From NCBI GenBank assembly GCA_903900335.1, contig CAIUMP010000021.1:44075-108074 (forward strand): a stretch of DNA of 64,000 nucleotides, in the 5' to 3' direction. Source of the stretch: an uncultured Ignavibacteriota bacterium. Its GTDB lineage: Bacteria > Bacteroidota > Ignavibacteria > Palsa-1295. The translations under genes and the position numbers were made by a program. The first letter of the stretch is position 1. Every line of letters starts with the position of its first letter. Shown here in pieces: positions 4,625 through 7,479 of this stretch. A model generated the notes under the pieces. The model was not told the DNA's origin. It made no database searches and saw only the letters and a list, made by a program, of their open reading frames with translations.

Positions 4625-5248
4625 ATGAACAACTCAGCACCACAATCCTGGTATGACTTCCCCGCAATGCAGCCGATGGACCCACGCTCCATCGTGCAGG
4701 TCATTCAACTCACCGACAACGCCGCCGCCGTGCAGACCGGTCAGTTTCAATACAGCGGGACGTGGCTACAGACCGTGACCTGGGGCAATCCGCCCATTGC
4801 CACTTCGCCTTTCGTCCCAGGGACGATACCCATCGTGAGCGTTCCAAACGTCAATGATTACGAGTCACAAAATATCGCGATTGCATGGAATGCCTCCCAC
4901 GCGATGACGGTTAACAATAACAAGCTTCCGGTATGCGTGAACAACATCATGTTTCTCAAGGCAGGCACCGCGTTCGTTAATACGCTCTTCTTCGATTGGA
5001 CGGGCATCATCACCGCGACCGACATCCAATTCTCCTTCCGCGATAACTCGGTAACGAGCGGAATGTTTATGAACGGAGCAACGGGCCTTGTTCCGGTTTT
5101 CACATTCCCGAGCACCTCCACGTATGGTGCCTTTGCAATGAAGCTTCAGGTCACCCTCCTCCAGCCGGGCCGCTATACCGTTGGCCTCCGCATTCACGAC
5201 AGCGCAGGAACGTGGAGTTTATATGAAATGCAGTGGATCGTTCTATAA
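4625..5248 (+). CDS. Hypothetical beta-rich protein, 207 aa, no signal peptide
   Basis: Clean ATG-started ORF with an A/T-rich leader. The C-terminal PGRYTVGLRIHDSAG resembles a PKD/Ig-like strand pattern. Confidence 0.75.
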   Translation: MNNSAPQSWYDFPAMQPMDPRSIVQVIQLTDNAAAVQTGQFQYSGTWLQTVTWGNPPIATSPFVPGTIPIVSVPNVNDYESQNIAIAWNASHAMTVNNNKLPVCVNNIMFLKAGTAFVNTLFFDWTGIITATDIQFSFRDNSVTSGMFMNGATGLVPVFTFPSTSTYGAFAMKLQVTLLQPGRYTVGLRIHDSAGTWSLYEMQWIVL

Positions 5249-5273
5249 TCACTAAACGGTAAGGAACGCCCAA

Positions 5274-7046
5274 ATGCAGACCAGCCTCATCGGAGTACCG
5301 ACTATTCTTCAGTCTCCTCCTACCATCGTGCCTCCGCCACCAGTTGGCGGAGGTGGGGCCGCGCCTGCATTTGCAGGCGGATGGTTTGAGCAGATACCAC
5401 AAGTTGGGCCGCTGGCGGGGTTGGGCACAACGGCTGATGCATCCGGCGCAATAAGTAACACGGTTGTTGGCCACGATGGGAAACACTTCCAGTTTCTGAA
5501 GGAGGGCAGAGAGTGGCAAAACAGCATTCCGCTTGACTTTGGCGGACATCCTTGTAAGAACGGGGGGGATTGCGGGTGCGGCGGAACGTGCAAGGCCACC
5601 AACAGGACGAATCGAGATCCATCATCGGTCAACGGATCGATTGCGGAGACTTCCAAACGGAATCTTGATGAGAATCCAGGTCTTAAGCAACTCCTTACGA
5701 ATAACTTTAAAGTAACGGCGGGTATGGGGGTTGCTGCGCGAGTTGACCAAGGAATAACTCAACCCGCAAGAGTTACCATTGACACCCCCGTATCGAAGTT
5801 AGTGGCTGCGTTCGATGTTGCGAAGGAAGGAAACATATTCACCTTCTCATGCCAGTACGATACAGGAGTAACTGAAACAATTATTAGCGAGGTGGAGCGT
5901 AGCGGAGTTGTGCGTGTTCGAATAAACGACATCTCGAATCTTCGGAATATCTTAGACATCCGTTATCATCTGAATGGAGGCTACTGGATGTTGAATAATA
6001 GGATAGTAGTCTCTGCAAAAGATGCAAATCTTGCTAAGTTCGGTCTGGGAGCTTGGATATCGTTTTATACTCTGCGTTCCAGTCTTGCTCACGATGAAGT
6101 TGGTCCAGGGAGTCGTGCACAGGAGAATGCAGCCATGCCAGGTTCGATCGCAACCGGCTTGGGTAGTGTACTTGGATATCCTGCACCCCGCATACTTTCG
6201 GCAGGTGGTGGTGGTGACAATGATATTATGGAGCCAGAACCCCCTGGTGGGCCCTGTATCAACCACAATCTTATTTGCGACTTTCCTGTTCCGATACCGC
6301 AATGGGGGTTCACAGGACCCAAAATTGGAATGCTGAATTCCGACCAGAAGACCATGTGGTTTGCTGGATTCCCTTGTATTCTCCCTATCGAAATAAACAT
6401 TGCCGATTGTTGTTTTACCCATGATATTGCCTATTGGTGCTCATCAGATAGGGGCGAGTCACGCCTCGCGGACAATAACGTAGCTGGTTGTGTTGCCGGT
6501 AGGTTGATAAATGCGATCCTCGACGCATATGATAATTTCTGGTCCATGCTCTGTATGGGCCTCGTCACTATCTTTGACCCTTGGGTTACTCTAGCCACAC
6601 TTTTTGATTTTGGAGTGGTTTATGTTGAAACCATCGCCGAGATTGTAACAGCACTTGAAATCTTCGCGCCGTATGATGCATCAAAGCAGTGGAAATTTGG
6701 CCCGGATGGAATCCATAAGGACAGTTGTCTTTGTGGTGGAACCTTGCCTACCGCACCCTGTCGGGATGACAAGTCGGGTATGGATAAGCCCATGACCAAC
6801 CGCCAAAAGGAATGTCGGGATCTTTGTTTGGAAATACCTGCAGCAAAGGAAAGAGAAAAATGCATCAATTGCGGATGGAAGTGTAATTATGAAAGGCTAA
6901 TCCCAAAGGGATATAAGGTTACTAAGTCATTTGATCCTGGCGAAAATAATCCAACACAGAAGAAATGTTGCTTCGGGACATCACAGTATTGTACACAGGA
7001 TTTTATAGGTCCTGACTGCCCACCTGTACCACACATGACTCAATAA
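5274..7046 (+). CDS. Cys-rich protein with phospholipase A2-like domain (putative toxin/effector)
   Basis: DCCFTHDIAYWC (6405-6440) followed by RxxADxxVxxCV. About 25 Cys in total, and an N-terminal CKNGGDCGCGGTC. Confidence 0.7.
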   Translation: MQTSLIGVPTILQSPPTIVPPPPVGGGGAAPAFAGGWFEQIPQVGPLAGLGTTADASGAISNTVVGHDGKHFQFLKEGREWQNSIPLDFGGHPCKNGGDCGCGGTCKATNRTNRDPSSVNGSIAETSKRNLDENPGLKQLLTNNFKVTAGMGVAARVDQGITQPARVTIDTPVSKLVAAFDVAKEGNIFTFSCQYDTGVTETIISEVERSGVVRVRINDISNLRNILDIRYHLNGGYWMLNNRIVVSAKDANLAKFGLGAWISFYTLRSSLAHDEVGPGSRAQENAAMPGSIATGLGSVLGYPAPRILSAGGGGDNDIMEPEPPGGPCINHNLICDFPVPIPQWGFTGPKIGMLNSDQKTMWFAGFPCILPIEINIADCCFTHDIAYWCSSDRGESRLADNNVAGCVAGRLINAILDAYDNFWSMLCMGLVTIFDPWVTLATLFDFGVVYVETIAEIVTALEIFAPYDASKQWKFGPDGIHKDSCLCGGTLPTAPCRDDKSGMDKPMTNRQKECRDLCLEIPAAKEREKCINCGWKCNYERLIPKGYKVTKSFDPGENNPTQKKCCFGTSQYCTQDFIGPDCPPVPHMTQ

Positions 7047-7053
7047 TCAGTCT

Positions 7054-7479
7054 ATGAACTTCTCCTTTCTAAAAAATATCGAGATCCGCCGTCATCTCAC
7101 TATCTGCACAGTCGTCATTTTTGCTTCTGTAGTAGGAATGGGTTCATGCCAAACCGATTTCGGCCCGGATGCTTTAGTCCCCGACCCTTCATTCGTGGAT
7201 TTCAAATCTGTTCAGCTTGATTCCTGTACGCACGCTCCAATCTATTTTCTCAATCATAAGAACTTTACGCTTCGACTTCGTGCTACTATTTCAAATCGTG
7301 AGTTCTCGTTCCGTGACACGACTAATCTAAAAGACTCGCTTCCAATGGCTATGTCAACGGCGATCTCGGTTTACTTTTGCCCGAAGGTGGCTGGCTTATT
7401 TCGGGACACTGTCCACCTTATTGGCTCAGACGGGGTGACTTACGCTTCGGTTCCGCTCTCCGGTATCGGCGTGCCTTAA
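7054..7479 (+). CDS. Putative lipoprotein with a single Ig-like (ASH/choice-of-anchor D-like) domain
   Basis: Hydrophobic stretch ending VVGMGS-C. The VDFKSV ... VYFCPKVAGLFRDTVHL ... VPLSGIG pattern is typical of ASH-type Ig domains. Confidence 0.65.
   Translation: MNFSFLKNIEIRRHLTICTVVIFASVVGMGSCQTDFGPDALVPDPSFVDFKSVQLDSCTHAPIYFLNHKNFTLRLRATISNREFSFRDTTNLKDSLPMAMSTAISVYFCPKVAGLFRDTVHLIGSDGVTYASVPLSGIGVP

Follow-up and report, generated by a model that had tools for sequence, protein, structure and literature searches.

The DNA analyzed here (the window) is a stretch of 64,000 nucleotides on contig CAIUMP010000021.1 of an uncultured Ignavibacteriota bacterium from lake water, and its segment 3963-7517 harbors three open reading frames, ORF1, ORF2, and ORF3. 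The three frames are co-oriented and are separated by gaps of 25 nt (ORF1-ORF2) and 7 nt (ORF2-ORF3), as described in an initial annotation of the sequence, which read them as an effector module built from a beta-rich partner, a phospholipase A2 (PLA2)-like toxin, and an immunity or anchoring lipoprotein. They are genuine genes and not chance frames, with 15 database relatives for ORF1 and 148 representative clusters at E ≤ 1e-3 for the ORF2 profile. With somewhat more confidence than doubt, segment 3963-7517 is read as a single cassette that was inserted here and belongs to a polymorphic effector-immunity system restricted to this lineage, in which ORF1 is the conserved marker, ORF2 a PLA2-like effector, and ORF3 the immunity protein. 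The initial interpretation is partly supported and at the same time enlarged, since the real unit is a family of polymorphic cassettes marked by ORF1. The segment contains the following features.

3963-4624, no strand: left part of the insert, about 660 nt, non-coding, with two direct repeats of about 52 nt that belong to a dispersed repeat family of the genome
4625-5248, plus strand: ORF1, 207 aa, leaderless immunoglobulin (Ig)-like beta-sandwich, conserved multi-copy marker, candidate adaptor or carrier
5274-7046, plus strand: ORF2, 590 aa, leaderless, 25 Cys, candidate effector
7054-7479, plus strand: ORF3, 141 aa, predicted Ig-like lipoprotein, candidate immunity protein specific to this cassette

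In all five same-genus genomes examined, ileS, a dksA-like gene, and lspA follow one another without interruption on the same strand. In the window these neighbors are split by segment 3963-7517, and ORF1, ORF2, and ORF3 lie on the opposite strand. Because ileS and the dksA-like gene adjoin in five of five relatives, the segment is an insertion into the ileS-dksA-lspA operon. The G+C content falls to 0.46-0.47 at both of its ends. Upstream of ORF1, the stretch 4190-4480 contains two direct repeats (4248-4299 and 4342-4393, about 52 nt each, 83% identity), and parts of it recur at some 25 or more other sites of the genome on about 20 contigs with 86-100% identity (blastn, 45 hit rows). Judged from these matches, the stretch is a dispersed element resembling miniature inverted-repeat transposable elements or repetitive extragenic palindromes; none of the matches falls at the other two ORF1 cassettes of the genome. 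A promoter and terminator scan of 3900-7700 gives counts at shuffle level. For window positions 4400-7600 no RNA run is listed, and the only strong matches are two lake-water DNA runs from one study, one of which may be the source of the sequence.

ORF1 is the constant part of the cassettes. The counts given here cover the ORF1 loci collected for the analysis, including 20 further loci from 12 genomes, and a hydrophobic N-terminus was used as a proxy for a signal peptide. In 32 of 37 full-length ORF1 genes, the next gene is an ORF of at least 150 aa on the same strand and within 150 nt (the cargo); the five exceptions are seemingly fragmented or have slightly larger gaps or overlaps. The cargos lack a hydrophobic N-terminus in 32 of 32 cases. 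A third gene follows within 250 nt in 28 of the 32 cassettes, and its product carries a hydrophobic N-terminus in 23 of the 28. Clustered by sequence at E ≤ 1e-5, 34 cargos form 15 groups. Polymorphic toxin systems are recognized by a conserved upstream or N-terminal module that is followed by many unrelated downstream or C-terminal modules exchanged through recombination, and this is the arrangement found for ORF1 and its cargos. That a conserved system of ORF1-cargo-exported protein cassettes exists is considered very likely; like the gradings given below for the catalytic role of ORF2 and the immunity role of ORF3, this is an informal judgment made without calculation.

The window's genome alone contains three such cassettes. 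The second (contig C61, locus L036) consists of an ORF1 gene, a leaderless 514-aa protein rich in Gly, Asp, and Pro, and a lipoprotein-like protein of 188 aa. In the third, ORF1 is followed by a leaderless 814-aa protein with a Pro/Gly-rich N-terminus and by a 400-aa Kelch protein with a weak match to the sorting tail of the type IX secretion system (T9SS). The ORF1 proteins of the window and of C61 are 57% identical, and ORF2 is unrelated to the 814-aa cargo (best E 0.48). The initial annotation had proposed a search for copies with the same N-terminus and different C-termini; such copies exist in the form of a shared upstream ORF1 gene with unrelated downstream proteins.

The cargos themselves vary widely. 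Two are almost entirely low-complexity sequence rich in Gly, Asp, Ser, Thr, and Pro, contain no Cys, and are ordered only in a C-terminal end of about 130 aa (L036 3503-5047 on C61 and L049 4534-5964); they occupy the cassette position of ORF2 but are very different from it. At L057 (G207:C1:1612700-1627000), three cassettes stand in tandem. In each of them, an ORF1 with the start MGCGCNN is joined by a cargo rich in Cys (about 280-350 aa) and by a beta-propeller protein (about 440-460 aa). Two of the three beta-propellers have a T9SS tail, two ORF1 copies are identical, and the first cassette seems degraded. Short elements recur at the N-termini of the cargos. The motif [ILV]L[PQ] occurs within the first 50 residues of 13 of 34 cargos, compared to a shuffle mean of 3.7 (standard deviation 1.7, maximum 9), with the motif chosen post hoc and kin included in the count. 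Cys-pair motifs recur as well, both at cargo N-termini (HPCxxGGxCxCGGxC, MGCPPDCGP) and in some ORF1 homologs (MGCGCNN, MCETCNN). Both kinds of element may have a bearing on how the cargos are exported.

ORF1 takes on a beta-sandwich fold in its AlphaFold2 model (predicted local distance difference test [pLDDT] 87.4, predicted template modeling score 0.82), which bears out its description as beta-rich, and its structural neighbors are generic Ig-like proteins only. A single-protein pattern search of genome contigs with ORF1 gave 14 pattern matches and no confirmed one. The ORF1 profile, in turn, identifies the protein in 56 of the 301 class genomes searched, frequently with more than one copy per genome (up to 10; three in the window's genome), and in 21 of the 34 genomes of the window's family. 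ORF1 lies directly upstream of ORF2 homologs in this family and in two other families of the class. When the same loci are compared by phmmer, ORF1 matches at E 4e-70 to 5e-14 and ORF2 at 1e-24 or weaker; ORF1 is thus far better conserved, and ORF2 diverges rapidly relative to it. The ORF1 tree groups by genome or lineage and not by cargo type; the three paralogs of the window's genome form one clade, and the label "PLA2-type cargo" changes 8 times on the tree compared to a shuffled mean of 8.1. Such a pattern is expected if ORF1 is a generic module that faces the machinery, while the units of cargo and immunity gene behind it are swapped. Some ORF1 homologs (loci L040, L041, L043, L052, L054, L057, and L024) have paired-Cys extensions at their N-termini (MCETCNN.., MCKTCNN.., MGCGCNN.., MCNCND.., MACGCNN..), which are conserved across genomes and are missing from the ORF1 of the window.

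In a language-model (Atlas) search, the neighbors of ORF1 are mostly viral clusters, one of them with Phage_tail_C, at scores of 0.81-0.84 that lie below the 0.9 bar and serve as a lead only. PLA2 and SLT activities are also present in virions. Together these points would fit a phage-derived or tailocin-like remnant with ORF1 as a tail or fiber accessory and the cargos as receptor-binding or envelope-degrading virion proteins. This origin is very improbable: ORF1 and ORF3 have no PHROG match at E ≤ 0.1 and ORF2 has only one at 0.076, a Foldseek search of ORF1 against BFVD returns generic Ig-like proteins only (template modeling score ≤ 0.30), the genome contains neither a sheath nor gp25, and housekeeping genes flank every cassette locus viewed.

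ORF2 is the cargo of the window's cassette. Its N-terminus is not hydrophobic by a Kyte-Doolittle window (a crude test), and its 25 Cys, its Pro/Gly-rich N-terminus, and its quoted motifs agree with the initial annotation, in which the protein was likewise described as lacking a signal peptide. The two hydrophobic helices named there correspond to one hydrophobic stretch at aa 422-463, the sole one noted, that is modeled as helices 422-434 and 436-463. The parts of the protein are the following (all on the plus strand).

5274-5798 (aa 1-175): Pro/Gly-rich, predicted disordered region that includes TILQSPP at aa 9-15
5547-5591 (aa 92-106): HPCKNGGDCGCGGTC motif within the Pro/Gly-rich region
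5811-6089 (aa 180-272): antiparallel sheet and long helix, confident model
aa 309-315: the sequence SAGGGGD
6393-6506 (aa 374-411): candidate PLA2-like helix-turn-helix core with CC379-380, H383-D384, W388-C389, D400, and C406
aa 378-389: DCCFTHDIAYWC, which carries CCxxHD..WC
6420-6425 and 6471-6473: codons of H383-D384 and of D400, respectively
aa 397-407: the sequence RLADNNVAGCV
6537-6662 (aa 422-463): hydrophobic helical hairpin, from hydropathy and modeled helices
aa 484-489: the sequence SCLCGG
6723-7043 (aa 484-590): SCLCGG and Cys-dense tail

The protein family that includes ORF2 has no name and is represented by 148 clusters. A word-based homolog search with ORF2 found nothing at E ≤ 1e-3, ORF2 itself included, and a six-frame search located homologs in 10 of 61 related genomes, all of which belong to the window's own family (9/34). 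Twelve homologs were aligned and used for a profile search of 1.84 billion representatives, which yielded 148 proteins at E ≤ 1e-3 (72 at E ≤ 1e-30) and a 149-sequence alignment. In this alignment, the Cys residues of the core are nearly invariant (C379 136/139, C380 137/139, C389 137/140, C406 136/141), H383 and D384 are each present in 133 of 140 sequences, and W388 is found in 102 of 140 with Y or F in 34 more. The tail is conserved to a similar extent (C485 135/139, C487 139/140, G489 132/142, with C518, C530, and C565 near-invariant), and another conserved stretch reads D357-G358...P367-C368-x-G370. The HPCKNGGDCGCGGTC motif is kept in nine of the 12 aligned homologs (HPC in eight, HSC in one). 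The motif HPCQxGGxCxCGGxC also stands at the extreme N-terminus of the Ala-rich proteins P0156, P0158, and P0160, whose remainders are quite different. Because it is found on otherwise different proteins, it looks like a portable module, perhaps a metal-binding or recognition tag.

Some relatives of ORF2 point to where its core domain works. The T9SS sorting domain PF18962 is present in 8 of 73 distant family members scanned, six of which also match PKD_6 (E ≤ 0.1), and most of the eight have Sec-like N-termini as judged by eye. Because of these tails and signal-like N-termini, the core domain is taken to act outside of the cytoplasm in the T9SS-tailed relatives. The hydrophobic hairpin occurs in relatives of this Sec/T9SS type too, and an equivalent stretch is seen in P0098; the hairpin is a candidate membrane-inserting or interfacial element.

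The AlphaFold2 model of ORF2, for which the 149-sequence alignment served as input, has a mean pLDDT of 65.7. Residues 1-175 are essentially disordered (pLDDT below 50 for aa 1-91 and 104-147), and aa 320-590 are mostly modeled at pLDDT 79-95. In this part, strands at 351-375 are followed by helix 377-388 with the His-Asp pair, helix 393-419 with D400 and C406, and the two hydrophobic helices 422-434 and 436-463, after which the Cys-rich tail contributes a beta-hairpin. The PLA2 superfamily is characterized by C-C-x-x-H-D or C-x-x-H-D on a helix, and ORF2 carries this arrangement on the modeled helix 377-388 (membership was judged against the Pfam families PF00068, PF05826, PF06951, and PF09056).

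The link between ORF2 and microbial secreted PLA2s is indirect and proceeds in two steps through a second protein family, as far as profile comparison can tell. P0159, a lipoprotein-like protein of 168 aa, is a weak member of the ORF2 profile search and matches Phospholip_A2_3 (PF09056, 5.1e-4) and PLA2G12 (0.0097), both below threshold. P0159 has 77 relatives, three with a precomputed PF09056 assignment. An alignment of 49 of the 77 has D66, C68, S69, C84, H87, D88, Y91, W92, and D104 among its invariant residues, and four of the 49 match PF09056 at E ≤ 0.01 (best 5.6e-6). The profile of this family finds exactly three PDB entries at E ≤ 10, and all of them are PLA2s (8k1w_A 0.0075, 4aup_A 0.0095, 7ygk_A 1.5). 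In the other step, hhalign aligns the ORF2 family with the P0159 family (96.8% probability, E 2.1e-10) over ORF2 residues 374-411, and the residues of CC-x-x-H-D, W-C, A-D400, and C406 fall on invariant P0159-family residues, with D400 on D104. A language-model Atlas search with aa 320-590 also ranks PLA2_3 and PLA2G12 clusters at the top (score 0.78, a lead only). In our reading, the ORF2 core would be a homolog of the PLA2 His-Asp two-helix unit inside of a much larger, novel domain, and a PLA2-derived and catalytic core is considered probable.

ORF2 could also be an effector whose catalytic domain is not a PLA2, with a CCxxHD helix that is convergent or belongs to another lipid- or envelope-directed helical class, such as a Lipocone-like or a novel hydrolase fold. 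Helical lipid-directed toxin superfamilies beyond PLA2 exist (PMC12419801). Foldseek against pdb, VIA-align wide, and pdb_via return no PLA2 fold, which is small, disulfide-bonded, and all-alpha, for the whole-protein ORF2 model, and most of their rows fall on aa 138-282; in size the domain far exceeds a PLA2, and it contains the hydrophobic hairpin; and a second conserved motif, CxxHDxxC, lies upstream (H331 110/141, D332 121/140), at which the window protein has Asn and reads HN. Set against this is the hhalign register, which places five invariant positions on those of a family whose only solved relatives are PLA2s, and the bridging P0159, which matches the ORF2-family profile as well as PF09056 and PLA2G12. 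A non-PLA2 domain is considered unlikely.

ORF3 begins with a hydrophobic segment that ends in ...GMGSC and resembles the Ig-like ASH/Cep192_D4 models of Pfam (E 3.5e-8, 34.1 bits, just under the cut-off of 35.5). The initial annotation had treated the three genes as one module. This holds for ORF1 and ORF2, whose adjacency recurs, but ORF3 does not travel with ORF2 homologs and is rejected as a conserved third partner: other exported small proteins follow these homologs, from at least four unrelated families of small membrane proteins with signal peptides, and the relatives of ORF3 in other genomes stand in unrelated contexts and not beside ORF1 or ORF2. ORF3 is nevertheless placed in the module because of the 7-nt gap, its location in the same insertion, and the fact that cassettes generally have an exported third gene. 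The strongest argument for its membership is that it arrived together with this insert or entered it. The chance that ORF3 is the immunity protein of ORF2 is put at about even.

Among 24 third genes scanned, two encode ankyrin proteins with signal or lipoprotein N-termini, seven encode beta-propellers of the Kelch, BNR, or sortilin type (six with T9SS tails), two look like unrelated enzymes, and the rest are orphans. The third genes look like immunity scaffolds. Related third genes accompany 9 of 52 pairs of related cargos compared to 10 of 383 pairs of unrelated cargos, with kin in these counts not being independent, which is suggestive of a co-variation of third gene and cargo.

The leaderless state of ORF1 and the cargos, the insertion of the cassette beside repeats, and the viral-cluster neighbors of ORF1 (0.81-0.84, again a lead only) would also be compatible with an intracellular anti-phage system of the abortive-infection type, in which ORF1 would be the infection sensor and would switch on variable leaderless effectors (a membrane lipase, for example) to kill the cell once it is infected. 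Defense systems likewise put variable effectors behind a conserved component. Several properties of the cassettes are at odds with such a role and make it highly unlikely. PADLOC has no match for ORF1, ORF2, or ORF3; the core domain is disulfide-rich and has Sec/T9SS signals in relatives; an SLT cargo needs periplasmic peptidoglycan; and exported third genes make no sense as cytoplasmic antitoxins.

How the cargos of the preferred effector-immunity system would leave the cell can be narrowed down from the gene content of the window's genome, which is 100% complete by marker genes and 4.0 Mb in size. It has no match to PF05943, PF04965, PF05488, or PF04984 (TssC/VipB, gp25/TssE, PAAR, and the phage-type sheath), that is, to the markers searched for a type VI secretion system (T6SS) or a sheath, in line with the initial annotation, which saw no export signal of the T6SS type; contractile-injection markers, searched as sheath and gp25, are absent too. 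Across the class, TssC occurs in 11 of 301 genomes, in none of the 34 of the window's family, in which 21 have ORF1, and in 5 of the 56 ORF1-positive genomes. The assignment of the cassettes as T6SS loci is rejected because the markers are absent from the genome and rare among ORF1-positive genomes. The T9SS is prominent, with at least 150 PF18962 matches in the genome, several on the window's contig (C21), an unusually large T9SS cargo set for 4.0 Mb. ORF2 has neither a Sec signal nor PF18962 (Pfam scan and hydropathy), and the cargos in general lack the Sec signal that a T9SS cargo needs.

A bolder proposal for export is that, in this class of Bacteroidota without a T6SS, ORF1 marks a so far undescribed pathway that delivers leaderless effectors directed at the envelope and that would be neither a T6SS nor contractile injection nor classical Sec/T9SS. 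The small Ig-like carrier would read a short N-terminal Pro-rich element ("ILP"-type, together with Cys motifs) that is common to at least 15 unrelated cargo families, and with ORF2 the PLA2 superfamily would gain the first member of a new branch that is large and bears a hairpin. Taken as a whole, this proposal is possible but doubtful.

What the analysis shows is how the genes are ordered and that this order recurs, that cargos are swapped behind a conserved ORF1, that the segment is an insertion, that the motifs are conserved, and that profiles link ORF2 to PLA2; the following mechanism is proposed. ORF1 would serve as a general adaptor or carrier. It would bind the neighboring cargo at its disordered N-terminal region and pass it to an export system, with the Pro/Gly-rich region of ORF2 as recognition or export element. 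ORF2 would be unfolded or inactive in the reducing cytoplasm and would fold and act outside, where its approximately 20 conserved Cys may oxidize and the hydrophobic hairpin may engage the membrane. The site formed by His383 and Asp384, possibly with Asp400, would then hydrolyze phospholipid in the envelope of a competitor. ORF3 would reside as a lipoprotein in the envelope of the producer, where it would bind and block ORF2.

Several points weigh against the cassette as an effector-immunity unit with a PLA2-like effector. On the side of PLA2, ORF2 matches no Pfam family, curated PLA2 models included, at E ≤ 1, and neither ORF2 nor the 149-sequence profile finds a PDB sequence at E ≤ 10. The hhalign match that links ORF2 to PLA2 spans 38 columns only and begins at aa 374, so that no loop upstream of it is covered; the calcium-loop motif of microbial PLA2s, DGC[ST]..PD (YxGxG in other members of the superfamily), is neither aligned nor evident in ORF2, which contains no DGC[ST]. 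The initial annotation had read CCxxHDxxY with a downstream Asp as the PLA2 signature. The His-Asp half of this claim is borne out by the family and by the indirect profile chain, but position 400, Asp in the window protein, is N in 62, D in 52, and S in 12 of 141 sequences. On the side of the system, ORF3 is not conserved next to ORF2 homologs, and no recognized trafficking domain (Pfam, NCBIfam) is found in ORF1 or ORF2 and no secretion system is linked to them. Nineteen of 20 non-PLA2 cargos scanned have no Pfam hit, and therefore "toxin" is a generalization from two cargo types. The loci are a non-random sample of relatives that are not independent, L009-L019 having been chosen via ORF2 and the rest via ORF1. 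Finally, catalysis, toxicity, the ORF1-ORF2 and ORF2-ORF3 binding, and export are all properties that we infer.

The scarcity of toxin domains, the mostly low-complexity Gly/Pro/Asp-rich or beta-propeller-like nature of several cargos, the T9SS surface-anchoring tails on some third genes, the Ig-like fold of ORF1 and ORF3, which is common in surface proteins, and the frequent Asn at position 400 could all be explained if the cassettes encoded variable cell-surface or structural proteins such as adhesins, matrix, or envelope components. ORF2 would then be a surface protein that is rich in Cys and has no catalytic role, ORF1 would assist in its assembly, and the third genes would encode envelope anchors. 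The conserved His-Asp pair is hard to explain without catalysis, however, and the one non-PLA2 cargo of the 20 with a recognizable domain is an SLT lytic transglycosylase (E 1.8e-8), a muramidase-type enzyme. Conflict systems typically show just such an exchange of cargos behind a constant gene, accompanied by exported downstream genes that co-vary, and the cargos lack Sec signals. A surface or structural role for the cassettes is judged improbable.

Among known systems, Tox-PLA2 has been catalogued in the polymorphic toxin systems of numerous phyla, with Bacteroidetes and Chlorobi among them (Zhang et al. 2012, PMC3482391), so that bacterial toxins of the PLA2 type are already a known kind. 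Likenesses to these Tox-PLA2 systems are the use of a PLA2-type His-Asp lipase as an interbacterial or inter-organismal toxin module, swappable toxin ends, and adjacent immunity genes. Tox-PLA2 domains are described there with DxC[ST], CxxHxxxYxN, and C motifs, as C-terminal domains in proteins of the filamentous, RHS, or ALF-repeat type, and with a type II secretion route. ORF2 differs in that it has no such repeats, no Sec signal, and no recognizable DxC[ST] loop, and in that it carries CCxxHD..WC, a hydrophobic hairpin, and about 20 extra Cys and has no Pfam PLA2 match. Microbial PLA2s of groups XIII/XIV (PF09056; 4aup, 8k1w, 7ygk) share with ORF2 the C-x-x-H-D helix and the following antiparallel helix with Asp and Cys. 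They are only about 110-125 residues long and have both a Sec signal and a calcium loop of the form DGCS..PD, whereas ORF2 is a leaderless protein of 590 aa that is linked to them in two steps.

The gene logic of the cassettes is also that of T6SS Tle-Tli loci, in which leaderless, envelope-targeting lipase effectors are preceded by a small conserved upstream gene for an adaptor and followed by an exported immunity protein, periplasmic or a lipoprotein; the ankyrin and beta-propeller immunity scaffolds fit as well. The cassettes differ in that the window's genome is without TssC, gp25/TssE, PAAR, and sheath. Within Bacteroidetes, the TANFOR class (Jana, Salomon & Bosis 2020, PMC7073777) comes closest as a precedent for a phylum-specific delivery module whose toxins are fused to it or encoded nearby. 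Its members are large fusions of which about 87% have Sec signals, and the toxins listed are mostly nucleases. According to the same source, a conserved Bacteroidetes-specific delivery module carries variable toxins that are fused to it or, sometimes, encoded by the next gene, with immunity downstream. ORF1, in contrast, is a separate, leaderless Ig-like protein of 207 aa without an NCBIfam or Pfam hit. ORF1 and ORF2 are rejected as TANFOR proteins: the scans with Pfam and with NCBIfam, which presumably contains a TANFOR model, are empty at E ≤ 1 save for one Y_Y_Y hit at 0.22, and the N-termini are not hydrophobic. Scans of ORF1, ORF2, and ORF3 with NCBIfam, PHROGs, and PADLOC, and the Pfam scan of ORF1 and ORF2, give nothing beyond weak noise. 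The literature on PLA2s, polymorphic toxins, and the T9SS in Bacteroidota, with subscription journals outside of the coverage, contains no description of an ORF1-marked system that we found, and the system is called undescribed for this reason. 

Two further genes of the window lie outside of the insertion. A DksA/TraR-type zinc-finger protein is encoded at 2901-3962 on the minus strand; it has a C4 finger at aa 298-331 (E 5.3e-5) and a histone-H1-like N-terminal extension of about 200 aa that is rich in Lys, Ala, Pro, and Ser, and its gene keeps its place beside ileS and lspA in five of five same-genus relatives. At positions 1-660 on the plus strand, a 5'-open frame of 219 aa leaves the left end of the window and has no Pfam match at E ≤ 1.

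Even if one of the alternatives holds, ORF1 and its neighbors still make up a well-defined orphan gene-pair family with unusual evolutionary behavior, and ORF1 offers an easy starting point for finding new families of effectors and immunity proteins in genomes. If the effector-immunity reading is true, the PLA2 superfamily would, through the ORF2 family, come to include a much larger architecture that has a membrane hairpin, and the exit of leaderless, disulfide-rich, or peptidoglycan-degrading proteins from T6SS-less cells would become a testable secretion problem. With ORF1 in 56 of 301 sampled genomes of the class, in up to 10 copies, and with dozens of cargo families without a known domain, the cassettes would then represent a sizeable uncharted arsenal in environmental Bacteroidota.

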